Source: a virus (lineage: Duplodnaviria > Heunggongvirae > Uroviricota > Caudoviricetes). Taken from it: a stretch of DNA of 14,107 nt. Positions 1 through 14,107 of this stretch are shown here, piece by piece (position 1 is the first letter of the stretch; each line of letters begins with the position of its first letter). The notes under the pieces were generated by a model. The model did not search any database, was not told where the DNA came from, and was given only the letters and a program-made list of their open reading frames with translations. The stretch is from the IMG/VR virus record IMGVR_UViG_2563366830_000016; one strand, written 5' to 3'. A program made the translations under genes and the position numbers.

Positions 1-1254
1 ATGCTGGAACAAATGGGCATTGCCGCGAAGCAAGCCTCGTATAAATTAGCGCAACTCTCCAGCCGCGAAAAAAATCGCGTGCTGGAAAAAATCGCCGATG
101 AACTGGAAGCACAAAGCGAAATCATCCTCAACGCTAACGCCCAGGATGTTGCTGACGCGCGAGCCAATGGCCTTAGCGAAGCGATGCTTGACCGTCTGGC
201 ACTGACGCCCGCACGGCTGAAAGGCATTGCCGACGATGTACGTCAGGTGTGCAACCTCGCCGATCCGGTGGGGCAGGTAATCGATGGCGGCGTACTGGAC
301 AGCGGCCTGCGTCTTGAGCGTCGTCGCGTACCGCTGGGGGTTATTGGCGTGATTTATGAAGCGCGCCCGAACGTGACGGTTGATGTCGCTTCGCTGTGCC
401 TGAAAACCGGTAATGCGGTGATCCTGCGCGGTGGCAAAGAAACGTGTCGCACTAACGCTGCAACGGTGGCGGTGATTCAGGACGCCCTGAAATCCTGCGG
501 CTTACCGGCGGGTGCCGTGCAGGCGATTGATAATCCTGACCGTGCGCTGGTCAGTGAAATGCTGCGTATGGATAAATACATCGACATGCTGATCCCGCGT
601 GGTGGCGCTGGTTTGCATAAACTGTGCCGTGAACAGTCGACAATCCCGGTGATCACAGGTGGTATAGGCGTATGCCATATTTACGTTGATGAAAGTGTAG
701 AGATCGCTGAAGCATTAAAAGTGATCGTCAACGCGAAAACTCAGCGTCCGAGCACATGTAATACGGTTGAAACGTTGCTGGTGAATAAAAACATCGCCGA
801 TAGCTTCCTGCCCGCATTAAGCAAACAAATGGCGGAAAGCGGCGTGACATTACACGCAGATGCAGCTGCACTGGCGCAGTTGCAGGCAGGCCCTGCGAAG
901 GTGGTTGCTGTTAAAGCCGAAGAGTATGACGATGAGTTTCTGTCATTAGATTTGAACGTCAAAATCGTCAGCGATCTTGACGATGCCATCGCCCATATTC
1001 GTGAACACGGCACACAACACTCCGATGCGATCCTGACCCGCGATATGCGCAACGCCCAGCGTTTTGTTAACGAAGTGGATTCGTCCGCTGTTTACGTTAA
1101 CGCCTCTACGCGTTTTACCGACGGCGGCCAGTTTGGTCTGGGTGCGGAAGTGGCGGTAAGCACACAAAAACTCCACGCGCGTGGCCCAATGGGGCTGGAA
1201 GCACTGACCACTTACAAGTGGATCGGCATTGGTGATTACACCATTCGTGCGTAA
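1..1254 (+). CDS. proA: Gamma-glutamyl phosphate reductase (glutamate-5-semialdehyde dehydrogenase), complete
   Basis: 417-aa ORF starting at base 1 with ATG; translation recognised as enterobacterial ProA over its whole length (ends ...[12 protein letters not shown]); lies directly upstream of tRNA-Thr, as at the E. coli proA-thrW locus. Confidence 0.95.
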
Positions 1255-1368
1255 ATAAAACCGGGTGATGCAAAAGTAGCCATTTGATTCACAAGGCCAT
1301 TGACGCATCGCCCGGTTAGTTTTAACCTTGCCCACCGTGATTCACGTTCGTGAACATGTCCTTTCAGG

Positions 1369-1444
1369 GCCGATATAGCTCAGTTGGTAGAGCAGCGCAT
1401 TCGTAATGCGAAGGTCGTAGGTTCGACTCCTATTATCGGCACCA
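1369..1444 (+). tRNA. thrW: tRNA-Thr (anticodon CGU)
   Basis: 76-nt sequence GCCGATATAGCTCAGTTGGTAGAGC...GGTTCGACTCCTATTATCGGCACCA with cloverleaf-compatible arms, anticodon loop TTCGTAA (CGT) and encoded 3' CCA; recognised as enterobacterial thrW, a known integration target for P4-like and P22-like elements. Confidence 0.95.
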
Positions 1445-1461
1445 TTCAAACATCTCCCCAA

Positions 1462-1545
1462 GTCTACTAAAGTCTTTCAAAACCCCTTATAATCCGCGTA
1501 TTAAAGCCCCGTTCGTCTTTTGACGTCTACTAAAGTCCCTCAAAA
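1462..1545 (+). repeat. Two 21-bp direct repeats (GTCTACTAAAGTCTTTCAAAA at 1462-1482; GTCTACTAAAGTCCCTCAAAA at 1525-1545) between the tRNA 3' end and int; candidate integrase arm-type sites in attL
   Basis: Read directly: 19/21 identical copies spaced about 63 bp apart, immediately downstream of the tRNA and upstream of the integrase start. Tyrosine integrases of tRNA-integrating elements commonly bind arm-type repeats in this position; the function is inferred. Confidence 0.4.
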
Positions 1546-1609
1546 TCTACGGTCAGATGGGGGTACTTATGGGGGTATTTGCTGTTCGGTTTAGTGGAGG
1601 TACCCCCAA

Positions 1610-2824
1610 GTGAAACTCAATGCCCGTCAAATAGACACAGCCAAGCCAAAAGAGAAGGCTTACAAGCTGGCCGATGGTGGCGGTTTGTATCTCTTGGTAA
1701 AACCTAATGGAGGTAAATACTGGCGACTTAAATATCGTGTAGATGGTAAAGAGAAGCTATTGGCACTAGGTGTGTATCCTGAGGTTACTCTAGCCGATGC
1801 TCGGGCAAAACGTGAAGATGCGAAAAGAGGTATCGCTGGTGGTATCGATCCGATGGAAGCGAAACGAGAGGAAAAGATTGCCCGGGAAACGCAGTTAAAC
1901 AACACCTTCAAAGATATTGCCCTTGAGTGGCACAGCAGCAAATTAAAAAAATGGTCTGCTGGTTATGCTTCAGACATCCTCGAAGCCTTCAACAAAGATG
2001 TGTTCCCTTACATTGGCAAAAAACCAATCGCCGAAATCAAACCACTTGAACTTCTGAATGTGCTGCGGCGCATCGAGGGGCGCGGTGCTACAGAAAAAGC
2101 CAAAAAAGTGAGGCAGCGGTGCGGGGAAGTTTTCCGCTATGCAATAGTCACTGGTCGCGCAGAGTATAACCCTGCACCAGACCTTACTAGCGCGATGCAA
2201 GGCCATGAATCTAATCATTACCCTTTCCTTACAGCTAAAGAATTACCTGATTTTTTCAAGGCATTGTCCAGTTACTCAGGAAGCGCATTGGTTGTTATGG
2301 CGGCTCGTCTACTGATTATCACCGGCTTGCGGACTGGCGAACTACGTGGCGCATTATGGGATGAAATTGATTTCAACAAGGCTATCTGGGAGATACCCGC
2401 TTCACGTATGAAAATGCGGCGGCCTCATATTGTGCCATTGTCTGATCAGGCTCTTTCGCTTATTGGGAAGATTAGAGAAATAACAGGCAATTACCCTCTT
2501 ATGTTTCCCGGGCGCAATGATCCAAGGAAAACAATGAGTGAGGCCAGCATAAACCAAGTGTTTAAGCGCATTGGCTACGCTGGACGTGTAACTGGTCATG
2601 GGTTCCGGCACACTATGAGTACGATTTTGCATGAGCAGGGCTATAACACCGCGTGGATAGAAACGCAGCTCGCTCACGTTGATAAGAACTCAATTCGTGG
2701 CACATACAACCATGCGCAATATCTGGATGGAAGGCGGGAGATGCTTCAATGGTATGCCGACTATATGGATTCTCTCGAGCATGGCGGAAATGTGGTGCAT
2801 ATGGTGTTTGAAAAACACGCATGA
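1610..2824 (+). CDS. Tyrosine-type site-specific integrase, P4-like family (GTG start)
   Basis: 404-aa ORF; N-terminus KLADGGGLYLLVKPNGGKYWRLKYRVDGKEKLLALGVYPEVTLADARAKR is the typical P4-type integrase arm-binding domain; C-terminal HGFRHT and catalytic-Tyr region (YNHAQY) consistent with tyrosine recombinases. GTG at 1610 is the only in-frame start; GGAGG lies 9 nt upstream. Adjacent to the tRNA. Confidence 0.9.
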   Translation: MKLNARQIDTAKPKEKAYKLADGGGLYLLVKPNGGKYWRLKYRVDGKEKLLALGVYPEVTLADARAKREDAKRGIAGGIDPMEAKREEKIARETQLNNTFKDIALEWHSSKLKKWSAGYASDILEAFNKDVFPYIGKKPIAEIKPLELLNVLRRIEGRGATEKAKKVRQRCGEVFRYAIVTGRAEYNPAPDLTSAMQGHESNHYPFLTAKELPDFFKALSSYSGSALVVMAARLLIITGLRTGELRGALWDEIDFNKAIWEIPASRMKMRRPHIVPLSDQALSLIGKIREITGNYPLMFPGRNDPRKTMSEASINQVFKRIGYAGRVTGHGFRHTMSTILHEQGYNTAWIETQLAHVDKNSIRGTYNHAQYLDGRREMLQWYADYMDSLEHGGNVVHMVFEKHA

Positions 2825-2967
2825 AACAACTGGACAAGTATACAGAGGTTTACTAAAGTATAGGGGAGTAGATTGATAAAAACTCACAGAGGATTGCTAT
2901 TTAACAGTTAGCCCTGGAGAAGGGCAATCGCTCTTTTATAAACGAAGGTGTATTGAGCCTTCTACGT

Positions 2968-3032
2968 CGCTGACAAAGCGGAATGTTCTTTAACAGGCTT
3001 TGGCGCTGACAAAGCGCAATTGTTCTTTAAAA
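2968..3032 (+). repeat. Tandem imperfect direct repeats of about 28 bp (CGCTGACAAAGCGGAATGTTCTTTAACA / GCGCTGACAAAGCGCAATTGTTCTTTAAAA) in the int-alpA intergenic region
   Basis: Read directly at 2968-2995 and 3003-3032. Position between int and the regulator gene suggests a protein-binding or regulatory site; function unknown. Confidence 0.4.
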
Positions 3033-3131
3033 CTACTGGATGTCACGCCTAATAGCGTGATCCTGCCGAAATGCAGGGTAGCTCTACCCTTGTGGAGCGA
3101 ACAAACCAAAACAATCTGACTATCTTTTATA

Positions 3132-3166
3132 AAAGACCGCAATATGTTTTTCATATTGTGGTCTTT
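3132..3166 (+). promoter_or_regulatory. Long inverted repeat (15-bp arms, 5-nt centre): AAAGACCGCAATATG-TTTTT-CATATTGTGGTCTTT, upstream of alpA
   Basis: Read directly; one mismatch in 15 bp; no U-tract follows on either strand, so operator-like or RNA-structure rather than an intrinsic terminator. A TTGACG motif follows at 3181-3186. Confidence 0.4.
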
Positions 3167-3252
3167 GGCGTATTCGACATTTGACGCAAATAAAACTCTC
3201 GCCATTCGTTGCAGGAGGGGGTTATTGCGTCATTAGTACAGGATATTAATAA

Positions 3253-3456
3253 ATGGCTAATTACAATTCATTAATTCGTCTCTCTGAAGTTCAAAGGCGA
3301 ACTGGTTATAGCAAAGCATGGATTTATCGTCTTATTAGTCAGGGGAGGTTCCCTAAACAGGTAAAAATTGGAAGTCGGGCAATTGCTTTTGTTGAGTCTG
3401 AAATAGATGAATGGATTGAGAAGTGTATATTAGAATCTAGAGACGAGGTGGCCTGA
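3253..3456 (+). CDS. alpA: AlpA-family phage/island transcriptional regulator (small HTH protein)
   Basis: 67-aa ORF with ...GYSKAWIYRLISQGRFPKQVKIGSRAIAFVESEIDEWIE..., the characteristic AlpA (prophage CP4-57 regulatory protein) pattern; AGGA about 10 nt upstream; same orientation as int, as in P4-like and PICI-type elements. Confidence 0.85.
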   Translation: MANYNSLIRLSEVQRRTGYSKAWIYRLISQGRFPKQVKIGSRAIAFVESEIDEWIEKCILESRDEVA

Positions 3457-3887
3457 TGGAAAAGAAAAACCGCCCATTACAGGCGGCTAATTCAGATATT
3501 CGTGTATCTGATGTTACGCCCCTTACAAAATCCCTTCAAGCACCAAAGCGCACACCGAAAAAGCATCGTGCCAGAGTCTATATGCTGCGTACTGGTATAG
3601 AGGGATGGACAGAAAATGACATTCTTCGCTACTGCCGTCTGTCTTCTGGTCGTAACTATGCAACAGAGTTAGAACGCCAGCTTGGAATCACTCTGGAGCG
3701 TATCGACGAAAAGAATCCTGATGGTATCGGAACACACCTTCGCTACCGTTTCTCCTGCCGTGGTGATGTTCTGAAAGTGATCACTCATATTAACCATCTT
3801 GCGAACATAAATGATCACAACGGACTTTCTCAGCAGGAAATTGCCGACATTCTGAAACTCTACCCGGACGCGTTTAACGCCGCCTAA
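3456..3887 (+). CDS. Hypothetical protein, 143 aa, basic N-terminus; translationally coupled to alpA
   Basis: ATG overlaps the alpA stop (TGATG). N-terminal Lys/Arg-rich segment (PKRTPKKHRARVY) suggests nucleic-acid binding. No family recognised. Confidence 0.6.
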   Translation: MEKKNRPLQAANSDIRVSDVTPLTKSLQAPKRTPKKHRARVYMLRTGIEGWTENDILRYCRLSSGRNYATELERQLGITLERIDEKNPDGIGTHLRYRFSCRGDVLKVITHINHLANINDHNGLSQQEIADILKLYPDAFNAA

Positions 3888-3899
3888 CGGAGACTGAAA

Positions 3900-4733
3900 A
3901 TGAACATCGAAAAAAGCAGATTAATTTCTGAGGCCGCCCCTCATCTGAACGCCTCTCTGGGCACAATTAACGGTAATGAATTTGCCGCAATTGTCCCGGT
4001 TATTCCAGGTCACATCGGTGGGCGTGAAACCAATATTGTTAGCGCAAAAGCGTTACACAAAGCGTTGGGCGTGGGAAAAGACTTCTCTACATGGATCACT
4101 GATCGCATCTCTGAATATGACTTCACCATTGGGCACGATTACTCAGTCCATAAAACAATTTCCCCAAATTTGGGGAAAAGCCCGAATGGCACGGCTTACA
4201 GCAAGATTAAGCAGTCTGGCAGACCCGGCAAAGACTATCTGTTAAGTGTCGGAATGGCGAAAGAGCTGGCAATGATCGAACGCAATGATCAGGGTCGCGC
4301 TATCCGTCGTTATTTCATCCAGTGCGAGGAAGAATTACAGCGTAGCGTGCCTGAAATCGCCGCCCGCTATCGTCGCCAGCTAAAAGCCCGTATCAGTGCC
4401 GCAAACAACTTTAAGCCAATGTGCGATGCGCTGAATATGGCCCGTGCCGAGCAGGGGAAAACGACGCAGCAACACCACTACACAAACGAGAGCAATATGA
4501 TTTCTCGTATCGTTCTTGGAGGGCTAACTGCTAAGCAGTGGGCGCGGATAAATGGCTATTCTGGCGAACCTCGCGACCATATGAACGCAGAACAGCTTGA
4601 GCACCTCTCATATCTCGAAAGCACCAATATCACGTTAATTGATATGGGCATGGAATATGAGCAGCGCAAAGGAGAACTCACCCGCCTGTCGCAACGCTGG
4701 CTCGCCAAGCGTCTGGAGGCGGTCCATGTTTAA
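3900..4733 (+). CDS. Putative phage regulatory/antirepressor-like protein (Rha/KilAC-like region)
   Basis: 277-aa ORF; GGAGA RBS 7 nt upstream; segment DYLLSVGMAKELAMIERNDQGRAIRRYFIQCEEEL resembles the conserved core of phage antirepressor (KilAC/Rha-type) domains. Family assignment is from memory of the motif, not a search. Confidence 0.55.
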   Translation: MNIEKSRLISEAAPHLNASLGTINGNEFAAIVPVIPGHIGGRETNIVSAKALHKALGVGKDFSTWITDRISEYDFTIGHDYSVHKTISPNLGKSPNGTAYSKIKQSGRPGKDYLLSVGMAKELAMIERNDQGRAIRRYFIQCEEELQRSVPEIAARYRRQLKARISAANNFKPMCDALNMARAEQGKTTQQHHYTNESNMISRIVLGGLTAKQWARINGYSGEPRDHMNAEQLEHLSYLESTNITLIDMGMEYEQRKGELTRLSQRWLAKRLEAVHV

Positions 4734-4908
4734 GCCGACAGGAACACCACAACCTCAAAAACGCTACAAAGATGCCCACGGAGCACTCGTTACTGTCGAA
4801 AGCGTGTCTCACAACCGAGTGACGTTTTATCGCGACGGGTATCAATCGCCATGCGTACAACCGCTGGCGCGCTTCATGAAGGAGTTCGCGGAGGTTAACA
4901 AATGCTAA
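4726..4908 (+). CDS. Hypothetical small protein (60 aa)
   Basis: ATG at 4726 preceded by GGAGG (8 nt spacing) and overlapping the stop of the upstream gene; in frame with track ORF 4639-4908. No family recognised. Confidence 0.5.
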   Translation: MFKPTGTPQPQKRYKDAHGALVTVESVSHNRVTFYRDGYQSPCVQPLARFMKEFAEVNKC

Positions 4909-5339
4909 CCGTCCAGAAGAAGATATTTTCACTGACTGCTATGTCGCAAAAATCCAGCAATATGACAGCAAAGTCTGGCATTAATACAGCAGATACAAGC
5001 AAAGCTTATCATTTTATGGTGGTAGGAGCGGATGCCTTAACTATGTCAGAAATTACGGTCGATGGTGTTAGCGTTGAGAAGGTCAGCGGCTGCGCCAGAG
5101 AATTTCTGGTCGTAGATGACCTGTTCTGCTCGCGTAGTGACTCCACAAAAATCTTCGTCCGCACGCGCGACGTTAACGAAATGAGCGCGATGTACTGTGC
5201 CTCTGGTTCTTCCAATAGTGAGTTTTCGGAGTCCATAAAAAAGAGCTTGCCGTTATGCGGCAACACGGTTTATGGTTATAAGGCACCTCATAAAACGGGT
5301 GCCGGGATTAGGACCCCGCAGGCAATCGAGGCGATACAT

Positions 5340-5360
5340 GACGCGCCAGCGTCTTTTTTT
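5340..5360 (+). terminator. Candidate intrinsic terminator / attenuator: GACGC-gcca-GCGTC hairpin followed by T7
   Basis: Read directly: 5-bp GC-rich stem, 4-nt loop, then TTTTTTT at 5354-5360. Short stem, so moderate-to-low confidence. Lies inside the gap with no convincing gene (4909-5524). Confidence 0.35.
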
Positions 5361-5524
5361 GTATCGGCGCACACGCACACCTTATCAATGGTGGGCTGTA
5401 TGGGGCTGACTTCGGTCAGGCTGGTTTCCTTGATTGCCAGTAGTCCTAACCCTGTACAGTCCACCGCCAGCGAGCTTAGGACCTCCGGCGGTGGCTATAA
5501 ACCATCAATCAAGGAGGCTGCCAC

Positions 5525-5719
5525 ATGCTGGCTACTACCCCTACCCAAAAACCGCAATTTATCTGGATTATCGCCGCAGTTCGCCGCGATTGCCCGACAA
5601 TTACCGCCAAAATTCATCATATTGCTGCCGAGTCTGAACGCGATGCTCGCCGTTCTCTGGTGCGCGATCACATCTGCTTTTTTGCTGGTCGTATCCGCAT
5701 GGAGGTGGCACATGATTAA
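5525..5719 (+). CDS. Hypothetical small protein (64 aa); first gene of the coupled operon leading to the primase
   Basis: Strong RBS AAGGAGG at 5511-5517, 7 nt before ATG; host-like codon usage (CTG, CGC, GCC, ATC); its stop overlaps the next gene's start. Confidence 0.7.
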   Translation: MLATTPTQKPQFIWIIAAVRRDCPTITAKIHHIAAESERDARRSLVRDHICFFAGRIRMEVAHD

Positions 5720-5930
5720 AACCTACGATGTGCATATGGATCCCCTCGAACGCACAAGCCAGATCATCACACTGACAGAAGTGATTAACGACATTCTGGT
5801 GAGCAACTCTCCCTCACGAGACGAAAGACTGAAGGCGTTACTCGCGATATTGGATCTCGCCGTTCGTGACGTTCATTTCCTGCTGGAAGGTGGACAAATG
5901 CCATGCAAAACGGGGGCAACCAATGAATAA
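5712..5930 (+). CDS. Hypothetical small protein (72 aa)
   Basis: ATG at 5712 with GGAGGTG 4-10 nt upstream; overlaps the upstream stop; forms the 3' part of track ORF 4902-5930. Confidence 0.6.
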   Translation: MIKTYDVHMDPLERTSQIITLTEVINDILVSNSPSRDERLKALLAILDLAVRDVHFLLEGGQMPCKTGATNE

Positions 5931-6117
5931 CTCAATTAATACCCCTCGCCTTACGTCCGCACTTCAATTAATCGAGCAAGCAGCGGCTGTCCTGGTTGCT
6001 GTCAGTCTTTCGGCTGAAGAAATGGACGCTGCTGATGTCGTGGATGCGATTAAAGCGTGCTCATCTTTGGTTAACGATGCCCGTGCCGAGCTGGTAATTC
6101 TTGGGGGTGAAAAATGA
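5923..6117 (+). CDS. Hypothetical small acidic protein (64 aa)
   Basis: ATG at 5923 (GGGGG 6 nt upstream), overlapping the upstream stop (ATGAATAA); acidic, predicted helical (SAEEMDAADVVDAIKA...). Confidence 0.6.
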   Translation: MNNSINTPRLTSALQLIEQAAAVLVAVSLSAEEMDAADVVDAIKACSSLVNDARAELVILGGEK

Positions 6118-6377
6118 ATATCAACTTAATTTATCGTCATCCGTGTGAGCTGGAAATTGAATCATTGCTGGGGCGCGAAGAGCCATATCCAGACACATTC
6201 ACTCCCGCAGATTGCGCGACTGAACGGCTTACCAGAGCGCGCACAGGTCTGGTTCATGTGATGAATGAGATTGTTCCCTCGGTGGGAGGGGAACAGGCGA
6301 CAGTAATCAATAGCTGGCTACAAAAAGTTACCTCCCTGATAGATATCGGTTTAATCGATGTGGAGAGTGCGAAATGA
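6114..6377 (+). CDS. Hypothetical small acidic protein (87 aa)
   Basis: ATGA start/stop overlap with upstream gene; GGGGGTG RBS. Confidence 0.65.
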   Translation: MNINLIYRHPCELEIESLLGREEPYPDTFTPADCATERLTRARTGLVHVMNEIVPSVGGEQATVINSWLQKVTSLIDIGLIDVESAK

Positions 6378-6595
6378 CCAACATCCAGCTCATTGAAGCG
6401 CAATGTCGCATCGAACAGGTTCAGACTGTTTTAGGGTTCTGGCTTGAAGGGGCCAGCCCCAGCAACAGAGACAAGTTAATGATTGGCGCGGTTATGTCAC
6501 TGCTCAATGGCGTACCAGAAGCTATTCAGGAAGCGGACGAATTGTTGGGCAAATATGAGTTACAGAATCATTCAGGCGAGGCGAAACATGAATAA
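6374..6595 (+). CDS. Hypothetical small protein (73 aa)
   Basis: ATGA overlap with upstream gene; GGAGAG RBS. Confidence 0.65.
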   Translation: MTNIQLIEAQCRIEQVQTVLGFWLEGASPSNRDKLMIGAVMSLLNGVPEAIQEADELLGKYELQNHSGEAKHE

Positions 6596-7190
6596 TTTCT
6601 TAACTTTCCATGCAGAAGCAACGCCTGACGGCGTAAACATCATGTACCGCAGCAACGATGGCATGACAGAACGCGTTGAGACCGTCTCATATATTGATGC
6701 CGTAAATCGTCTGGATGCCGGGGATTATGACGATAAACCAGATGAAGGCATGTTTATACATCTCGCTATTGCCAGTGGCGGCAACCAGGGATATTTCGAT
6801 TACACATCACAGCATCACGTGATTATGTGGCGCTGGCTGATAGCAACAGCATTCATCAATGAAATGAGAAAGGAAAACGGCACTGTCAGCATCATTGATG
6901 ATACTGGCAATCCTTCCGAAGTGGCTGTTTATTCCAACGGCATCGTCGCCATGCCGCTGTATCCAGTAGCAGAGCGCCTCGCTATGGCAAACAACATTGA
7001 GGGCGCGATGATAGAACGTTTTGGCATCGAGTCTGGCACAGAACGCGCCATCATTTTCTACAGAGCCATGATGGATGTGGAACAAGGAGCACTGACTCCA
7101 TTTGGTCGTGAAACGCTTGCTGAACTTCACAACAGCTTTATAGCTGAACTGAATGAAAACGGCATGCCAGCGGAACCAGTGACGCACTGA
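6588..7190 (+). CDS. Hypothetical protein (200 aa)
   Basis: ATG at 6588 overlaps upstream stop (ATGAATAA); GAGG RBS; internal part of track ORF 6483-7190. No family recognised. Confidence 0.7.
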   Translation: MNNFLTFHAEATPDGVNIMYRSNDGMTERVETVSYIDAVNRLDAGDYDDKPDEGMFIHLAIASGGNQGYFDYTSQHHVIMWRWLIATAFINEMRKENGTVSIIDDTGNPSEVAVYSNGIVAMPLYPVAERLAMANNIEGAMIERFGIESGTERAIIFYRAMMDVEQGALTPFGRETLAELHNSFIAELNENGMPAEPVTH

Positions 7191-7200
7191 GGATGGAGCC

Positions 7201-7542
7201 ATGATTACTAAAAATTTCCGACTGAATGCGCTGGCAAATAAGTATGCGTCAGCACTGTATAACCACATTACCTCCACCAGCGGCGGGGACTATTTCATGA
7301 TTGATGCGGACGGAGAGGCCGTCCGTGTGGAAATCGTCAATGGAGTAAAAGGCGTTCGCAGCCTGATCGATAGTTACGCACTGGCAGCCATGAAAGTGTT
7401 CTACCCGCAGTGGGAAACCGTGGGGATCGAGCTTCTTGATCGTTGCGTCACTAAGGACAGATTGACTGACGTCGGGCGTGAGATATGGCAAAGCATGGTT
7501 AATGACATGGGCGCAACTGTAGCGGGAGGTTCTCATGCGTGA
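7201..7542 (+). CDS. Hypothetical protein (113 aa)
   Basis: GAGGATGGAG RBS directly upstream; overlaps downstream gene start. Confidence 0.7.
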   Translation: MITKNFRLNALANKYASALYNHITSTSGGDYFMIDADGEAVRVEIVNGVKGVRSLIDSYALAAMKVFYPQWETVGIELLDRCVTKDRLTDVGREIWQSMVNDMGATVAGGSHA

Positions 7543-7906
7543 AAATGTAGAAATGGCGCTTAGCTCCGCAATCGGAGAGCAGGTGGCAAAGATTGCTGGT
7601 GCTGTGTGGATTCATAACCTTCATTCTACTGGTGAAGAGAAAATGGCAATTCAGACGCCAGAGGGACGCACCATTACTACATCTCTGAAGCCGTCAGATG
7701 TTTGTGATCTGATTTGCGCATTCATGTACCCAGCAATGAGGACTGTCCACGGCGATAAGTGGAAACTTGCGACAACCGCTGAATTTGATATGTGGCTAAA
7801 CAATGATGGCATGCTGACTGATTACGGAATAACCAAGTGGCAGATGCTAGTTAGCCATATCGCAAACGCTATAGACCACGTGGGGTACGGTGATGCGAAA
7901 CATTGA
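7535..7906 (+). CDS. Hypothetical protein (123 aa)
   Basis: GGGAGG RBS 6 nt upstream; 3' end overlaps the primase start by 14-17 nt. Confidence 0.7.
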   Translation: MRENVEMALSSAIGEQVAKIAGAVWIHNLHSTGEEKMAIQTPEGRTITTSLKPSDVCDLICAFMYPAMRTVHGDKWKLATTAEFDMWLNNDGMLTDYGITKWQMLVSHIANAIDHVGYGDAKH

Positions 7907-10649
7907 TCTTATCCGTCAGGTTATCAGTGCGTCTGAAAACAACTGGCCTCATGTGCTGGGCTGCCTGAACATAAATGTCCCTGACTCTCCGCGCCGTCAT
8001 GCTCCCTGCCCTGCATGTGGGGGCAAAGATCGATTCCGGTTCGATGACAACGGGCGCGGTAGCTTCATCTGTAATCAGTGCGGCGCTGGTGATGGGCTGG
8101 ATTTAATTAAACGCGTAAATAACTGCGACACAACAGAGGCGGCGCTTCTTGCCGCTGATGTTCTGGGTATTGATTACCGGACAACGGAAACACCAGAAGC
8201 CACCAGCCAGAAACGGGAACAACTGGAAACCGAGCGCCAGCGACGCGAACAGGAGCGCCTGAAAAGGGCAGAGAAGGACGAACAACAAAGACGGGATACG
8301 TTTTCCCGTCAGTTTGATGACATGCGCAGAAAGGCTGTAAACGGCAAATCTGATTATCTGGTTGCGAAAGGGGTAGGTGATTTTACATTCCCCGTGTTGC
8401 CCGATGGATCTCTGTTGCTGGCGCTGGTGGATAAATCCGGCGCAGTAACAGCAGCACAGACTATTACCTCACATGGTGAAAAAAGACTCCTGACAGGTTC
8501 AGCAAAGCGAGGGGCATATCACGCCATAAACGCACCAGAAACAACACAGAGCATCTTAATCGCAGAAGGGCTGGCAACGGCATTATCTGCCCATTTAATG
8601 CGTCCAGAGGCGCTGACAGTGGCGGCGATTGATGCCGGGAACCTGTTATATGTCGCCCAGGTACTGCGGGATAAATTTCCTTCAGCACAAATCATCATTG
8701 CTGCGGATAACGACCACAGCGAAGGAAGACAAAACACGGGGAGAATAGCAGCAGAAAAAGCAGCTTTATCTGTTTCTGGATGGGTGGCATTACCCCCGAC
8801 AGATCACAAAGCAGACTGGAATGATTACCACCAAAAACACGGCATTAAATGCGCCACAGAAGCGTTCAATAAGTCAATGTACCAACCACAGGGTAATGGC
8901 GTGAAACAGGAGCCACAGACCATTGAGGGAAGCGATTTTAAGGTTATGGATACCGATCCACTGAAACCAAGAATAGAAAGCCGCGAGGATGGTATTTATT
9001 GGGTATCTCCGAGAGCTGACAGCCAGAGTGGAGAAATCATCAATAACGAAAGCTGGTTATGTTCTCCGTTAAGCGTTATCGGTACTGGCAGAGACGATAA
9101 AGACCAGTATCTCATTCTTCGCTGGCTGTCGTTTGGTTCTGAAACGCCGACAACCGCTGCCATTCCACTGGCTGATATTGGTGAACGTGAAGGATGGCGC
9201 ACACTTAAAGCTGGTGGGGTAAATGTCACGACCAAAAGCAGCCTCAGAGCAATACTGGCAGACTGGCTACAACGCAGTGGCTCTCGTGAATTGTGGCGTG
9301 TTGCTCATGCCACTGGCTGGCAATGCGGAGCGTACATCATGCCTGATGGGGAAATCATCGGAACACCTGAAAATCCTGTGCTGTTCAGCGGGAGAAGCTC
9401 AGCCGCAGCCGGATATACCGTCTCAGGGAGCGCGAAAAGCTGGCGTGATAACGTGGCGCGTCTGGCCTTTGGTAACTATTCAATGATGACCGGGATCGGC
9501 GCAGCACTGGCAGCGCCATTGATTGGGCTGGTGGGCGCTGACGGGTTCGGCATTCATTTCTATGAGCAGTCGAGCGCAGGTAAGACCACCACGGCAAACG
9601 TGGCGAGCAGCTTATACGGCAACCCTGATTTACTGCGGCTGACGTGGTACGGAACCGCGCTGGGGCTGGCAAATGAGGCCGCCGCCCACAATGACGGACT
9701 AATGCCGCTTGATGAAGTTGGTCAGGGCGCTGATCCTGTCAGCGTTTCACAGTCTGCCTATGCGTTATTTAACGGTGTAGGGAAACTGCAAGGCGCTAAA
9801 GATGGTGGAAACCGGGATCTAAAACGCTGGCGTACAGTGGCAATCAGCACCGGAGAAATGGATTTAGAAACATTTATCGCTACTTCCGGGCGAAAAACCA
9901 AAGCCGGGCAACTGGTGCGACTGCTGAATATTCCGTTGAGTAAAGCAGTACGCTTTCACGATTACCAGAACGGAAAACAGCACGCAGACGCACTGAAAGA
10001 CGCTTACCAGCATCACCACGGCGCGTCCGGGCGTGAGTGGATTAAATGGCTGGCAGACCACCAGCAACAGGCTATTAAAACCGTTCGTGACTGCGAAAGC
10101 AGATGGAGAAGCCTGATCCCATCCGATTATGGTGAGCAGGTTCACCGTGTAGCCGCGCGATTTGCCATTCTGGAGGCCGCATTGTTGTTAGGCGAGGTTG
10201 TAACAGGCTGGGATGCTCAGACATGCCGTGATGCGATACAGCACAGCTATAACGCATGGTTGCGCGAGTTCGGCACAGGTAACAAAGAGCATCAGCAGAT
10301 TATTGAACAAACGGAGGCATTTCTTAATGCCTATGGGCTTAGCCGTTTTGCACCATTTCCATACAGCCCGGCAGATTTGCCCATCAAAGATTTAGCCGGA
10401 TACCGTCAGCGTGGAGAACATGACGAAAGCCCAATGATTTTCTACACATTCCCGGCCACATTTGAAAAGGAGATCGCATGTGGTTTCAACGCAAAACAGT
10501 TTGCTGAAGTGTTGAAAAAAGCCGGGATGCTAACCCCACCAAACAGCGGTCGTGGATACCAAAGAAAATCACCACGTATTCAGGGACGACAAATAAACGT
10601 TTATGTACTCAATTACCAGCCAGGAGATTATAACTCATCTGAAGAATGA
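7890..10649 (+). CDS. Satellite/phage-type DNA primase-helicase (primase Zn-ribbon + TOPRIM + P-loop NTPase, P4 alpha-like)
   Basis: 919-aa ORF. N-terminal zinc-ribbon CPACGG...FICNQCG typical of primase-helicase Zn-binding domains; charged linker (EQLETERQRREQERLKRAEKDEQQRR); TOPRIM-like acidic motif (IAADNDHSEGRQ); Walker A (SSAGKTTT). Track start is GTG 7890; ATG at 7893 is the alternative. Confidence 0.9.
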   Translation: MMRNIDLIRQVISASENNWPHVLGCLNINVPDSPRRHAPCPACGGKDRFRFDDNGRGSFICNQCGAGDGLDLIKRVNNCDTTEAALLAADVLGIDYRTTETPEATSQKREQLETERQRREQERLKRAEKDEQQRRDTFSRQFDDMRRKAVNGKSDYLVAKGVGDFTFPVLPDGSLLLALVDKSGAVTAAQTITSHGEKRLLTGSAKRGAYHAINAPETTQSILIAEGLATALSAHLMRPEALTVAAIDAGNLLYVAQVLRDKFPSAQIIIAADNDHSEGRQNTGRIAAEKAALSVSGWVALPPTDHKADWNDYHQKHGIKCATEAFNKSMYQPQGNGVKQEPQTIEGSDFKVMDTDPLKPRIESREDGIYWVSPRADSQSGEIINNESWLCSPLSVIGTGRDDKDQYLILRWLSFGSETPTTAAIPLADIGEREGWRTLKAGGVNVTTKSSLRAILADWLQRSGSRELWRVAHATGWQCGAYIMPDGEIIGTPENPVLFSGRSSAAAGYTVSGSAKSWRDNVARLAFGNYSMMTGIGAALAAPLIGLVGADGFGIHFYEQSSAGKTTTANVASSLYGNPDLLRLTWYGTALGLANEAAAHNDGLMPLDEVGQGADPVSVSQSAYALFNGVGKLQGAKDGGNRDLKRWRTVAISTGEMDLETFIATSGRKTKAGQLVRLLNIPLSKAVRFHDYQNGKQHADALKDAYQHHHGASGREWIKWLADHQQQAIKTVRDCESRWRSLIPSDYGEQVHRVAARFAILEAALLLGEVVTGWDAQTCRDAIQHSYNAWLREFGTGNKEHQQIIEQTEAFLNAYGLSRFAPFPYSPADLPIKDLAGYRQRGEHDESPMIFYTFPATFEKEIACGFNAKQFAEVLKKAGMLTPPNSGRGYQRKSPRIQGRQINVYVLNYQPGDYNSSEE

Positions 10650-10672
10650 GCTTCTTCATGTGCGTAGAAAAG

Positions 10673-10787
10673 GTGTTGGTTCAGTTGGTTTAGTTGGTTC
10701 AATTTGTAAAGAGTATTGTTTTATAAGGATTTTATTCTTTTTATTGAACCAACACTGAACCAACAACACGGTATTTTGAACCAACAC
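10673..10787. repeat. Iteron-type origin candidate: 3 direct repeats GTTGGTT(C/T)A (10673-10701), AT-rich spacer, 3 inverted copies TGAACCAAC(A)AC (10745-10787)
   Basis: Read directly. Clustered 9-11 bp repeats in opposing orientation around an AT-rich core, immediately downstream of the primase-helicase gene, is the classic arrangement of a satellite/phage replication origin. Confidence 0.65.
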
Positions 10788-10893
10788 AATGTGACTGAAT
10801 TGATGCGCACAACACCTGGCTGGCATCAGAGAGTGTTTTACGAGACTTTCGTAAAATCCTGTGTACAAGGGCGTGACGTTTTTGAAAGTGAGC

Positions 10894-10912
10894 ACTACGA
10901 AATTTTCGTAGT
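10894..10912. promoter_or_regulatory. 19-bp palindrome ACTACGAAA-T-TTTCGTAGT (operator-like), with an additional TTTCGTA half-site about 45 bp upstream
   Basis: Read directly; 9-bp arms, perfect. Related half-site within ACTTTCGTAAAAT at 10845-10857. Function inferred. Confidence 0.35.
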
Positions 10913-11105
10913 TCAGAAAACAGCCTCTGAGAAGTTGTTATGCCTGTTCAGCAAACCATCCGCATAGCTGATCGCGAATCAAATTACCAATGGAGCCAGA
11001 AGCAAGGGCAGAACTGAAAAGCGCCTGCCGTGAAGAGTAATGCGACACCATAAATATAGTTTTTAGAGTCCATAAAAAACCTGTCAAAACCTGACACACA
11101 GAACG

Positions 11106-11138
11106 ATGCCACCAGCTACTGAGCGGTGGCATTTTTTT
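11106..11138 (+). terminator. Rho-independent terminator (8-bp stem ATGCCACC/GGTGGCAT, 11-nt loop, T7 tract)
   Basis: Read directly: perfect 8-bp GC-rich stem followed by TTTTTTT at 11132-11138. Confidence 0.65.
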
Positions 11139-11171
11139 GTGCTATTTGTTTCATATTTTGCAATTACGATG

Positions 11172-11200
11172 ATGAATATTGCGATTTGTGAAACTATAAT
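11172..11200 (+). promoter_or_regulatory. Candidate sigma70 promoter: consensus -10 TATAAT (11195-11200) with weak -35 ATGAAT at 17-bp spacing
   Basis: Perfect TATAAT hexamer 34 nt upstream of the ATG at 11234 and just downstream of the terminator; the -35 is weak, so low confidence. Confidence 0.35.
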
Positions 11201-11233
11201 AACTGTTGTTTTATACAGTTCTAAGGGGGCGTT

Positions 11234-11395
11234 ATGGCTATTTCAGTAAAGCCGGTATTGATAAGTGAGAAGCAAATGGAAGCGATAAAGAAAATTCAGG
11301 AAGAGCAGCGTAAAAAATCAGGAATTGGAGTAGCGCCAACTCTGCATGAAATTGCACGAGGGTTAATAGATAAGGCGCTGGCAGGCTGTATGTGA
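11234..11395 (+). CDS. Small ORF (53 aa), ribbon-helix-helix-like predicted fold; putative DNA-binding regulator or antitoxin-like protein
   Basis: Below the 60-aa track cutoff; found by reading. AAGGGGG RBS 4-5 nt upstream. MAISVKPVLISEKQMEAIKKIQEEQRKKSGIGVAPTLHEIARGLIDKALAGCM shows a beta-strand/helix/helix pattern typical of Arc/MetJ/CopG-type proteins. Fold assignment is inference. Confidence 0.45.
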   Translation: MAISVKPVLISEKQMEAIKKIQEEQRKKSGIGVAPTLHEIARGLIDKALAGCM

Positions 11396-11411
11396 AAATG
11401 GATGGCATCGC

Positions 11412-11873
11412 ATGGAACTAAAATTTATTGATAACCCTGTGCGATTACAGGCCTTTCTTAACGAGCCAGGCAATACCGAAAATATTGTTGAGCCGGGGCA
11501 CACGTACTACATCAAGCCTGATGCGGTATATCTCGGCATCTACGAAGGATTAGTGCTGGCTGGCGTTCATGAAGTGCGTAACTTCTGGCATAGCGTTGTT
11601 GAATGCCATGCGGTGTACGACCCCGGATTCCGTGGTGAATATGCACTGCAAGGACATCGATTATTCTGCAAATGGCTTCTCGAAAACTCACCATTCCTTA
11701 ACAGCATCACTATGGTTCCTGACACCACGAAATACGGACGGGCAATTATCCGTTTGCTTGGCGCTACCCGTGTTGGTCACCTTGATGATGCTTATATCAG
11801 ATGTGGTAAACCCGTCGGCGTAACGCTTTATCAGTTAACTCGGCAACAATATAAGGAATTCAGCGAATGTTAA
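11412..11873 (+). CDS. Hypothetical protein (153 aa), possibly P22 gp14-like; co-transcribed with downstream ejection-protein-like genes
   Basis: 153-aa ORF; its stop overlaps the next gene's start (ATGTTAA). Position and size match the gene preceding gp7 in P22-like clusters; the homology is recalled, not verified. Confidence 0.6.
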   Translation: MELKFIDNPVRLQAFLNEPGNTENIVEPGHTYYIKPDAVYLGIYEGLVLAGVHEVRNFWHSVVECHAVYDPGFRGEYALQGHRLFCKWLLENSPFLNSITMVPDTTKYGRAIIRLLGATRVGHLDDAYIRCGKPVGVTLYQLTRQQYKEFSEC

Positions 11874-12544
11874 TTACCCATATAGCTCATAAACATCTCA
11901 ATCGTGCCGTATACGAAAAAGGCGGTGATGGTGGTGCCTCTAAAGCTCAGGCGAAGGCCCAGCAGCAGGCAATTGATTTGCAGCGCGAGCAGTGGAATAC
12001 GGTGATGAATAATCTCAAGCCGTATGCAGAAGTCGGATTGCCTGCTTTACAACAACTACAAGGACTGATGACTCTGGAAGGGCAGAATAAAGCCGCGAAT
12101 GATTTCTTTGGTTCTGGTTTATATAAAACACAGGCAGATCAGGCCCGTTATCAGAACCTTGTCTCAGCAGAAACTACCGGGGGGCTTGGCTCAACAGCTA
12201 CCAGTAACCAGTTATCTTCCATTGCGCCCATGCTTTATAACAATTGGCTTAGTGGGCAAATGCAAAATTATGGAAACCTGCTAAATGTCGGGATGAATGC
12301 GGCATCAGGGCAGGCAACGGCAGGGCAAAACTACGCCAATAATACCGGACAACTCTTGCAGGGGCTTGGCGCTATTCGTGCAGGTCAGGCGCAGCAGCCA
12401 TCCAGTCTTGCGCGTGGTATTGGTGGGGCAGCATCAGGCGCTTTAGCGGGTGCGCAACTTGGTTCCGTTGTTCCTGGAATAGGAACTGCGGCCGGCGCTA
12501 TTGGTGGTGGGCTTATTGGTCTTGTTGGGGGGCTTGGATTCTAA
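11867..12544 (+). CDS. P22 gp7-like DNA-transfer (ejection) protein candidate, Gln/Gly/Ala-rich with glycine-zipper hydrophobic C-terminus
   Basis: 225-aa ORF, AAGGA RBS; low-complexity Q/G/A-rich composition and C-terminal GIGTAAGAIGGGLIGLVGGLGF segment. Size and composition match podovirus ejection protein gp7 (about 229 aa). Assignment by composition and synteny only. Confidence 0.55.
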   Translation: MLITHIAHKHLNRAVYEKGGDGGASKAQAKAQQQAIDLQREQWNTVMNNLKPYAEVGLPALQQLQGLMTLEGQNKAANDFFGSGLYKTQADQARYQNLVSAETTGGLGSTATSNQLSSIAPMLYNNWLSGQMQNYGNLLNVGMNAASGQATAGQNYANNTGQLLQGLGAIRAGQAQQPSSLARGIGGAASGALAGAQLGSVVPGIGTAAGAIGGGLIGLVGGLGF

Positions 12545-13863
12545 TGGCGACATGGCAACTTGGCGGGCTGCCTAGCATGGCACCGCAAAATGATAATGCT
12601 CCTCGTTCTTCCGTTCCTCAGCCTGTGCAGTATCAGCAGCAGCCAAACGTAGGTTTAATGGCGCTACAGGGGCTAAGAGGCGTTGCTGAGATTAATCAGC
12701 AGGCGCAAATTTCCCAGCAGCTAAAAGAATATCAGGCACGGTTGGGTAGTGCGGTAGCTAATAATGATCGTGTTGGCGTGCAGAAGTTAATGGCCCAGTA
12801 TCCCCAGTTTATGGCTGATTCTCAAAAACAGATGGGATTCATTGATGCTGAGCAAAATCGGCAGACCGCTGACGCTGCCATGAATCTGCGTCTTGCGTCA
12901 CAAACTGGAGATCCACTGACCATGCAGAAGGCCATTCAGCAGGCAAATCCAGTATTACAGCGATTTGGTCTTCCTGCTGAAGAGGTTTATCAGTCTTGGC
13001 AGAATGACCCACAGGAATTCAACAGAATCACTGACCTCATCCACCTCCATGCTGATCCAAATAGTTACTTTAGTGTTCAAGAGAAGCAGCAAGGGCAGAG
13101 TATTGCACAGCAGAACGCAGATACATCTGCATATAATGCTCAGGTTAATGCGGAGCAGGGTAATCGGCGGCTCGATATGGAGCAGTTCAAAGTCCTATCC
13201 GATAACCAACTACGCACGAGAGAAATGGTTCTGAAAGCACGACTTGGACGTGCTCAAAATGACATCGAGAGAGACAAGCTCAATGCTGAACTGAGCAAGG
13301 TACAGCAGGCGAAAGTGGAGAAGATGAACGATAAAATTAATACTGTTGCAGGTAATATCGACTCCTTGAACTCTGCGCTTGAAGTGGGTCATGAACTGGC
13401 GGGAATTGTAGGGAAACATCCTTCGGCCGTTACCCGTTCGCAGAACTATAACCCCCTGACGCTGGGGTTTGGATTCCTCCCTGATGTAGCAGAAGACACA
13501 CGAAGCCTACGCGCCAAAGCTGATGAATACAACCTAAAGGTTATTCTGCCTAGCCTAAAAGGTACTTTTGGCTCTAACCCAACCGAAGGGGAAAGGGCTG
13601 CCCTTATGCAATCTCAAAATGGCATTAAGTCAGCAACCAGCAATGAGGCATTTTTGCGAGAGTTGAATAAAGCGCAGGACGTAATTATTCGAATGCAGAA
13701 ACGACAGATTGCCGGGCTCGGTATTCCTGTAACCAAATCTAAGGACGAAGAAACTGATACCAAAATGCTGTTGCAGGATCCTTCACTGGTTAAGGATTAT
13801 GTGACCGCACATGGCTATCTGCCGGAAAGTTACTATCAGGCAAAACTTAAGGGATGGCAATGA
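12544..13863 (+). CDS. P22 gp20-like DNA-transfer (ejection) protein candidate, Gln-rich coiled-coil protein
   Basis: 439-aa ORF starting at TAATG overlap with the upstream gene; Q-rich, helical/coiled-coil character; size and position match gp20 (about 470 aa) of P22-like phages. Assignment is inference. Confidence 0.55.
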   Translation: MATWQLGGLPSMAPQNDNAPRSSVPQPVQYQQQPNVGLMALQGLRGVAEINQQAQISQQLKEYQARLGSAVANNDRVGVQKLMAQYPQFMADSQKQMGFIDAEQNRQTADAAMNLRLASQTGDPLTMQKAIQQANPVLQRFGLPAEEVYQSWQNDPQEFNRITDLIHLHADPNSYFSVQEKQQGQSIAQQNADTSAYNAQVNAEQGNRRLDMEQFKVLSDNQLRTREMVLKARLGRAQNDIERDKLNAELSKVQQAKVEKMNDKINTVAGNIDSLNSALEVGHELAGIVGKHPSAVTRSQNYNPLTLGFGFLPDVAEDTRSLRAKADEYNLKVILPSLKGTFGSNPTEGERAALMQSQNGIKSATSNEAFLRELNKAQDVIIRMQKRQIAGLGIPVTKSKDEETDTKMLLQDPSLVKDYVTAHGYLPESYYQAKLKGWQ

Positions 13864-13888
13864 TGGCACAACTGACAGAAAAACAGAA
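13863..13888 (+). pseudogene. 5' stub (about 9 codons, MAQLTEKQN...) of the next gene in the cluster (gp16-like position), truncated by IS insertion
   Basis: ATG at 13863 overlaps the upstream stop (TGATG), continuing the coupling pattern; the reading frame runs into the IS terminal repeat beginning at 13889. Confidence 0.35.
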
Positions 13889-14107
13889 TGAACCGCCCCG
13901 GGAATCCTGGAGACTAAACTTCCTGAGAAAGAGGTAAACAGGATGACTAAAAATACTCGTTTTTCCCCTGAAGTCCGTCAACGGGCAGTCCGTATGGTTC
14001 TGGAAAGTCAGGGCGAATATGACTCACAATGGGCGACAATTTGTTCCATTGCTCCAAAGATTGGCTGTACGCCGGAGACTCTGCGTGTCTGGGTTCGCCA
14101 GCATGAG
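13889..14107 (+). mobile_element. IS3-family insertion sequence, IS629/IS1203-like, left end (partial; continues beyond window)
   Basis: Terminal sequence TGAACCGCCCCGGGAATCCTGGAGACTAAAC followed by orfA encoding [55 protein letters not shown], recognised as the IS629-type OrfA N-terminus (HTH transposase subunit). Identity recalled, not searched. Confidence 0.8.
13943..14107 (+). CDS. IS3-family transposase OrfA (N-terminal 55 codons; truncated by window end)
   Basis: ATG at 13943 with GAGG RBS; translation matches IS629-like OrfA N-terminus; ORF open to the last base of the window. Confidence 0.85.

Follow-up and report, generated by a model that had tools for sequence, protein, structure and literature searches.

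The DNA that we analysed, a stretch of 14,107 nucleotides (nt) filed as a virus in IMG/VR (record IMGVR_UViG_2563366830_000016; hereafter the window, meaning the whole stretch), carries a near-identical copy of EcCIMP1, a phage-inducible chromosomal island (PICI) described in Escherichia coli MP1 by Pick, Stadel and Raivio (ISME J 2025; PMC11773190). Near its right end lie three genes whose products are homologous to gp14, gp7 and gp20 of phage P22, and these open a four-gene ejection cassette that is integral to islands of the EcCIMP1 type. We lean, with modest confidence, towards the reading that this cassette encodes a satellite-borne ejectosome whose components are loaded into the capsids of a helper phage.

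The element itself is already known. Positions 1–13888 of the window are 97.8–98.2% identical in nucleotide sequence to the EcCIMP1 region of strain MP1 and 99.9% identical to E. coli strain DLI.6n, and the genes considered here have been mentioned in print. With a length of 19,963 bp, EcCIMP1 occupies a tRNA-Thr site flanked by proA and yagU. Its attP has been sequenced, and it excises, forms a circle and is transduced only when Kapi1, a P22-like (Lederbergvirus) phage, acts as helper (PMC11773190). Coding sequences 017–019 of EcCIMP1 were noted as 'DUF2824 / DNA transfer' proteins for which a packaging role was proposed; the word 'ejection' is absent from that paper, and the genes are not treated there as a complete P22-type ejection set (PMC11773190). 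A literature search that combined ejection or DNA-transfer proteins with PICI or satellite returned this paper as its sole result. To this our analysis adds the explicit recognition of the genes as part of a complete ejection set of the P22 type, one that includes a gp16 homologue and a leader open reading frame (ORF), together with its prevalence, three allelic types, chimeric boundaries that match the structure of the P22 channel, signs of purifying selection, a conserved control region and the disruption of the window copy by the insertion sequence (IS) IS629.

The cassette encodes homologues of the P22 ejection proteins

The three genes, with the lengths of their products in amino acids (aa), are as follows.

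11412–11873, plus strand: gp14-like (DUF2824) protein, 153 aa (PF11039, phrog_651)
11867–12544, plus strand: gp7-like ejection protein, 225 aa (PF25688)
12544–13863, plus strand: gp20-like ejection protein, 439 aa, of cassette type A (PF16928)

Searches of Pfam matched the products, in gene order, to DUF2824, the family of P22 gp14 (E = 1.5e-61), to P22_gp7 (2.3e-72) and to Inj_translocase, the family of P22 gp20 (3.7e-22). Their matches in PHROG (651 at 1e-66, 598 at 3e-69 and 917/2534 at 3e-44) carry, in the same order, the labels 'head morphogenesis', 'DNA ejection' and 'released from the phage upon host infection'. When compared with the P22 proteins by BLASTP, the gp7-like protein is 55% identical to gp7 (E = 1.5e-52), the gp20-like protein is 28% identical to gp20 over its N-terminal 187 aa (E = 2e-14), and the gp14-like protein is 23% identical to gp14 (E = 2e-7, in a small database). 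The homology of the cluster to genes 14, 7 and 20 of P22 is thus far beyond chance, and the arrangement is that of a P22-type operon, with a gp14-family gene directly upstream of a gp7-family gene whose product has a Gly/Ala-rich hydrophobic C-terminus, together with a gp20-family gene. Searches of NCBIfam gave no informative match, sequence searches of PDB with the gp14-like, gp7-like, gp20-like and gp16-like proteins gave none, and a single-sequence AlphaFold2 model of the gp14-like protein was unusable (predicted local distance difference test score, pLDDT, 40.5).

These results bear out most of a preliminary description of this DNA, made from its letters and ORFs, which had proposed three coupled ORFs of 153, 225 and 439 aa resembling P22 gp14, gp7 and gp20 in size and order, and had named BLASTP against P22 as a check. 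Stops and starts overlap along the cassette (ATGTTAA, TAATG and ATGA), and its ORFs are therefore translationally coupled. The glycine-rich hydrophobic tail ascribed to the 225-aa protein is also real, its last 50 residues including 16 Gly and 9 Ala. Enrichment in Gln, Gly and Ala, which had been attributed to all three products, holds for the 225-aa protein (41.8% Q+G+A) and the 439-aa protein (27.8%) and fails for the 153-aa protein (17%). Two features had gone unremarked, namely a fourth coupled gene beginning at 13860 and a conserved 53-aa ORF at 11234–11395.

Similarity to the helper Kapi1 declines along the cassette, from 84% identity for the gp14-like protein through 57% for the gp7-like and 26% for the gp20-like protein to 24%, over the C-terminal half only, for the gp16-like protein. 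The Kapi1 homologue of the gp14-like protein, Kapi1_055, occupies the gene-14 position after the needle gene, and over a stretch of 395 bp the two genes are 90.7% identical at the DNA level. The gp7-like protein retains Y92, R100, Q102, N103, E108, S119, S123 and W133 of P22 gp7, residues of the fingertip network that docks on gp10. The gp20-like protein, by comparison, is at most 28.5% identical over its full length to that of any phage in INPHARED.

The cassette is an integral module of the island

To gauge how widely the cassette is joined to the island, we took as the junction positions 10560–12560 of the window (the 3′ end of the primase gene, the origin, the 53-aa ORF and the gp14-like and gp7-like genes), and required at least 80% coverage among 5426 complete E. 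coli genomes. The junction is present in 253 of these genomes (4.7%), with 98–100% identity among the matches listed, and 71 of the 253 also have the gp20 type of the window. The module occurs at two chromosomal sites, thrW and yicC/dinD, where it accompanies unrelated integrases, and either of two cassette types can be found at each site; a third cassette type accompanies a different (DUF5906) primase.

Homologues of the gp20-like protein at 70–89% identity are found in Salmonella, Pectobacterium and metagenomes, and all of those that we inspected lie in a satellite context, with AlpA, Ash, the DUF927 primase and the cassette and with no capsid genes. Homologues within complete P22-like prophages, by comparison, reach only 45% (Klebsiella electrica) and 38% (Providencia). 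The context in other genera was read from searches for homologous proteins and from the contigs that carry them; a scan built on a gp14 alignment, whose peptide patterns were overly specific, gave 2 loci. A scan of IMG/VR yielded ten related contigs, which do not in themselves demonstrate packaging.

All of the sampled ORFs are intact, and pairwise ratios of nonsynonymous to synonymous differences (pN/pS) are about 0–0.3 for the gp14-, gp7-, gp20- and gp16-like genes and for a lipoprotein gene downstream of them, values that derive from small counts. As judged from these ratios, the cassette genes appear to be under purifying selection. Taken together, the excision boundaries of EcCIMP1, the spread of the junction, the two chromosomal sites, the occurrence in other genera and the selection on the genes establish that the cluster is an integral module of the island.

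The cassette has a constant 5′ part and an apparently exchanged 3′ part

The three cassette types, which we call A, B and C, have identical gp14-like and gp7-like genes and identical gp20 up to about residue 55, and diverge thereafter; the gp20 proteins of types B and C remain identical up to about residue 190. Beyond these boundaries the relationships are to P22-like phages and prophages: type C gp20 is 93–100% identical to Kapi1 gp20 over its C-terminal two-thirds, and the C-terminal third of type A gp20, the type in the window, is 75–78% identical to gp20 of the K. electrica P22-like prophage. The gp16 homologues show a similar mosaic structure. Satellite gp7 and the gp20 N-terminus form a lineage of their own across genera, and satellite gp7 combines a satellite-specific segment (approximately residues 48–83) with a central block shared with phage gp7. 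From these comparisons it appears that the 5′ part of the cassette is held constant and that the 3′ part (the gp20 C-terminus, gp16 and a downstream membrane protein) is exchanged with P22-like phages. The boundary between the two, at about residue 55 of gp20, falls just past the segment of gp20 that contacts gp7 (residues 1–47 in P22).

A leader ORF and a control region precede the cassette

Three features lie between the origin and the gp14-like gene.

11097–11141, plus strand: hairpin and T-run resembling an intrinsic terminator, which closes the upstream unit; position conserved in relatives from other genera
11158–11218, plus strand: conserved cassette control region
11234–11395, plus strand: conserved 53-aa ORF heading the cassette, present in most sampled islands

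The control region comprises an inverted repeat, TTGCAAT-N13-ATTGCG (11158–11183), the hexamer TATAAT (11195–11200) and a second symmetrical motif, CTGT-N8-ACAG (11203–11218). In the islands of E. coli and Salmonella and in one metagenome island (L013) the spacer varies between half-sites that are conserved, and the exact motif occurs once per island. The islands of Pectobacterium and of a second metagenome (L011) align at the control region with diverged half-sites. This region would depend on an activator.

The DNA of the 53-aa ORF is identical in seven E. coli islands, and the ORF is 51–85% identical in islands from Salmonella, Pectobacterium and metagenomes. It stands directly 5′ of the cassette in most sampled islands; one (L015) has no gene call there, and in L011 it is present even though the DUF2824 gene is missing. 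Its product had no match in Pfam, PHROG, PADLOC or PDB, the last of which was searched with a profile. As a separate candidate, a repressor of the Arc/ribbon-helix-helix kind was rejected at an hhalign probability of 0.2%.

IS629 interrupts the fourth gene in the window copy

The right end of the window holds the beginning of the fourth cassette gene and part of an insertion sequence.

13860–13888, plus strand: 5′ stub of the gp16-like gene, 9 codons plus 2 nt; collinearity with the islands of DLI.6n (L001) and MP1 (L002) ends at 13888
13889–14107, plus strand: left end of IS629 (IS3 family), 99–100% identical to annotated IS629 copies

The start of the gp16-like ORF overlaps the end of the gp20-like gene (ATGA), making it the coupled fourth gene of the cassette, and IS629, whose transposase gene orfA begins at 13943 (HTH_Tnp_1), interrupts it after codon 9. 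In intact relatives the gp16-like product is 906 aa long, with an N-terminal SLT lytic transglycosylase domain (1e-12) followed by a body of the P22_gp16 family (phrog_770, 5e-120; PF26808 on its homologues), and it is 46–51% identical to gp16 of CUS-3, HK620, epsilon34, Dewey and Huey. The exact IS629 junction is absent from the complete E. coli genomes of our collection, and the disruption is private to the window copy. As gp20 and gp16 have to match each other, the window copy is probably crippled for the role that we propose below.

In intact copies the module consists of the 53-aa ORF, the gp14-, gp7-, gp20- and gp16-like genes and then a gene for an envelope protein, which differs with cassette type. 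In type A this is a 232-aa lipoprotein (L001, 20132–20830) whose protein sequence has no substitutions across five E. coli islands. In type B it is a 204-aa multi-pass protein (L010, 17539–18153, minus strand) with 29% identity to P22 SieA and a match to phrog_7745 (E = 4e-4), and in type C it is a 131-aa multi-pass protein (L019, 13421–13816, minus strand). The position of these genes downstream of the gp16-like gene mirrors that of sieA 3′ of gene 16 in P22, and we regard them as candidates for the unexplained contribution of EcCIMP1 to superinfection immunity.

Between the cassette and a PerC gene lie variable accessory genes that differ among islands, including those for an Abi-family protein, for ImmA/IrrE and a partner, and for hypothetical proteins (L004, 17490–20103; L009, 19847–21158; L010, 19023–20470), a stretch that resembles a cargo or defence hotspot. 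Other island copies carry lesions of their own: an IS3-family element lies in the primase gene of the DLI.6n island (L001, 12254–13467), IS600 lies in alpA of the strain 97_3250 island (L010, 3524–4680), and in the PK8276 island (L005, 11827–12547) a deletion joins alpA to the interior of the gp7-like gene and leaves gp20, gp16 and the lipoprotein in place. Together with IS629 in the window, these lesions suggest that individual island copies decay frequently.

Proposed function of the cassette

What is known of the P22 ejection proteins (E-proteins) provides a framework for the proposed role. Leavitt et al. (2024) found that whole E-protein sets of Sf6, L, CUS-3 and HK620 can replace those of P22 and are incorporated and functional, that gp7 can be swapped alone, and that gp16 and gp20 need to be a matched pair, mismatched pairs yielding non-infectious P22 particles (PMC10883804). 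The inner-membrane exclusion protein SieA targets gp16 and gp20, and the HK620 set escapes it in part (PMC10883804). According to Yu et al. (2026), the fingertip of gp7* (residues 90–126) docks on the tail hub gp10 and its hydrophobic C-terminus enters the outer membrane, gp20 residues 1–47 lie within the gp7* lumen, and the C-terminal plinth of gp20 contacts the inner membrane and gp16 (bioRxiv 10.64898/2026.09.03.749273).

We propose that the cassette would form its own transcription unit, set off by the terminator and read from an activator-type promoter with the conserved inverted repeat, and that it would be expressed when a P22-like helper such as Kapi1 enters lytic growth. Its products would be loaded into procapsids built by the helper, as foreign E-protein sets are into P22, and on infection of a new cell they would form a conduit for DNA across the envelope. 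The constant part (the gp14-like and gp7-like proteins and the first 55 or so residues of gp20) would preserve the contacts that these proteins make with gp10, the tail hub of the helper, and with one another, and the swappable part (the gp20 C-terminus, gp16 and the membrane protein) would face the inner membrane, where SieA-type exclusion acts. By swapping this inner-membrane half, particles that carry the satellite might enter cells on the satellite's own terms. A more general proposal, which we hold tentatively and rate a little short of even, is that a family of satellites widespread in the Enterobacterales carries a full ejectosome of its own and could thereby deliver DNA past SieA-type exclusion or into hosts refractory to the helper's own set.

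Several observations weigh against a satellite-borne ejectosome. Entry of the satellite proteins into virions, and a need for them in transfer, are steps that we infer. E-proteins are loaded before DNA is packaged and so could not be reserved for heads filled with satellite DNA, mixed E-protein sets might be harmful rather than useful, and any selective benefit is conjectural given that the helper already supplies working E-proteins. The gp20 and gp16 proteins of EcCIMP1, which are of type A, are only about 25% identical to those of Kapi1. A scan for sigma-70 promoters upstream of the cassette found no consensus and no -35 element. In addition, transduction of EcCIMP1 by Kapi1 is very low, at about 5e3 per ml, and a Kapi1-like prophage is present in only 2 of the 21 strains that carry EcCIMP1 (PMC11773190).

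If the proposal is correct, the cassette would represent piracy at the step of entry, not at that of capsid size or packaging. Known satellites alter the capsid size, the packaging specificity or the gene expression of their helpers, and satellite-supplied proteins of the DNA-entry channel would extend such tampering to entry. The cassette might also explain both the contribution of EcCIMP1 to superinfection immunity and the nature of its supposed packaging module, and the natural gp20 chimeras are ready-made constructs with which to test which E-protein interfaces must match. For the window itself the practical message is modest, since it holds a known element with an IS-disrupted cassette.

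Alternative explanations

The alternative that we take most seriously, while considering it unlikely, is that the cassette is anti-phage, either because its ejection proteins act in a dominant-negative fashion and spoil helper virions or incoming conduits, or because the cassette serves chiefly as the carrier of the downstream envelope gene, which would exclude P22-like phages. An envelope protein does follow every cassette type, mismatched gp16 and gp20 do make P22 particles non-infectious, and EcCIMP1 adds to superinfection immunity against Kapi1 even though Pick et al. found no known defence system in the whole island (PMC11773190); in our own PADLOC search no cassette or downstream protein had a match. 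However, the titre of Kapi1 after induction is not lowered by EcCIMP1, the superinfection immunity was observed only in lysogens, and a poison needs one gene, not a coupled set of four kept intact across genera by what appears to be purifying selection. We find it improbable that the cassette redirects DNA packaging to the satellite, as Pick et al. suggested for EcCIMP1_017–019. In favour, packaging modules of other PICIs lie downstream of the primase, as the cassette does, but the P22 homologues are ejection proteins, and deletion of gene 7, 16 or 20 from a P22 prophage still allows virion-like particles to be made, which fail in DNA delivery only (PMC10883804). Furthermore, searches of Pfam and PHROG revealed no terminase, TerS-binding or capsid-size motif in the cassette proteins.

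The preliminary description had envisaged a cluster stranded next to a satellite, with satellite DNA upstream, an IS element downstream and no other virion genes in the window. The surroundings are as it described, with integrase, AlpA, AntA, Ash and the DUF927 primase on one side and IS629 from 13889 on the other, and capsid, portal, terminase and tail genes are indeed absent; 'stranded' and 'adjacent' do not hold, for the cluster lies inside the satellite, within the EcCIMP1 excision boundaries (PMC11773190). Of the two origins that it offered, retention by the island as cargo comes nearer. We regard it as very improbable that these are the ejection genes of a decayed P22-like prophage beside an unrelated satellite. 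Part of the gp14-like gene has 90.7% DNA identity to Kapi1, the cluster is the only virion-type DNA in the window, and genuine remnants do exist, such as the one at argW in O157:H7. Against this, the cassette genes fall within the sequenced ends of excised EcCIMP1 (PMC11773190), the junction is shared by 253 genomes and other genera, occupies two sites in the chromosome and comes with shuffled alleles, the genes show the marks of purifying selection, and there is no fragment of a needle gene upstream, unlike in the O157 remnant. Neither of the outcomes that the preliminary description had said would overturn it came about: similarity to podovirus ejection proteins is strong, and an intact P22-like prophage continuing past the IS element is an explanation to which we attach next to no weight. 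That the window ends within IS629 leaves room for such a continuation, but every relative has accessory genes, PerC, the island end and then chromosome after the gp16-like gene, and in P22-like phages the place upstream of gene 14, where the window has the primase, is taken by head and tail genes.

Comparison with phages, a prophage remnant and other satellites

The segment 14-7-20-16-sieA of P22, with its counterparts in Kapi1, HK620, CUS-3 and Sf6, resembles the satellite cassette in its families, their order and their tight coupling, and P22 too has an envelope or exclusion-type gene 3′ of gene 16. The satellite cassette differs in following a primase, an origin and a terminator instead of head, tail or needle genes, and in having its own control region and 53-aa leader ORF; compared with Kapi1, P22 and two prophages (L017 and L018), the window does not place these genes in a late operon. 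The gp16 proteins of P22 and Kapi1 are without the SLT domain, which the satellite gp16 homologue shares with those of Dewey, Huey and the K. electrica prophage.

At argW in O157:H7 (L020, 6372–9188; RIMD 0509939) there are likewise genes for DUF2824, gp7 and gp20 proteins with no capsid genes nearby, and the DUF2824 gene there has 97.6% DNA identity to positions 11505–11791 of the window, a level that shows recent exchange between phage and satellite copies. The O157:H7 locus differs in that a truncated needle-knob gene precedes these genes and its gp20 is short, at 378 aa; it also lies next to intS and is without gp16, a primase and the 53-aa ORF. Unlike the cluster in the window, it is a true stranded remnant.

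Capsid-forming PICIs and P4 are, like EcCIMP1, helper-dependent and equipped with a subset of virion-related genes, the remainder coming from the helper. Capsid-forming PICIs, P4 and similar satellites encode capsid, size-determination or packaging proteins, whereas the sole virion-type genes of the window island are those for internal ejection proteins.

Other features of the island

Beyond the cassette, the window has the organisation of an EcCIMP1-type PICI, with an integrase at a tRNA attachment (att) site, AlpA, and a primase and replication module with a probable origin.

1369–1444, plus strand: tRNA-Thr (cgt), in which the island is integrated (ARAGORN)
1428–1437: published att core TCCTATTATC (core from PMC11773190; pattern search, 1 match against 0.01 expected)
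1610–2824, plus strand: tyrosine integrase of the satellite (Pfam Arm-DNA-bind_3, Phage_int_M, Phage_integrase)
3253–3456, plus strand: AlpA-family regulator (Pfam Phage_AlpA, 7e-20)
7890–10649, plus strand: Zn-ribbon/Toprim/DUF927 primase-helicase of the satellite (Pfam)
10673–10787, no strand assigned: origin-like iterons, three direct GTTGGTTYA repeats and three inverted TGAACCAAC repeats flanking an AT-rich core (repeat search)

The left edge of the window is proA, followed by the tRNA-Thr gene and then, in order, by genes for the tyrosine integrase, AlpA (the master regulator in EcCIMP1; PMC11773190), AntA/AntB, Ash and several small ORFs, by the primase gene and by the iterons. No capsid, portal, terminase, tail or lysis genes are present among the ORFs of the window or in the full islands of its relatives. 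As well as about 98% nucleotide identity across the island part of the window, EcCIMP1 shares with it the tRNA-Thr site and att core and the order int, alpA, antA, ash, primase, 53-aa ORF, DUF2824, gp7-like and gp20-like. The two differ in that the window copy has IS629 within the gp16-like gene and that its ash ORF is full-length, whereas MP1 shows a partial ash gene and an icd-like gene at that place.

The iterons lie just 3′ of the primase stop codon and are probably the replication origin. A 64-bp piece of this region (10668–10731) recurs near the PerC gene of EcCIMP1 (L002, 9846–9910) with 94% identity. Within the 342-aa 'Ash family' ORF, Rfam identified the isrK Hfq-binding RNA at 5283–5359 (63 bits) and the C4 antisense RNA at 5384–5471 (80 bits), which suggests an antisense immunity locus of the P1/P4 type. 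The annotation of this region in MP1 and other relatives gives a partial ash gene and an Icd-like gene, and the 342-aa ORF of the window may be a fusion or a mis-call.

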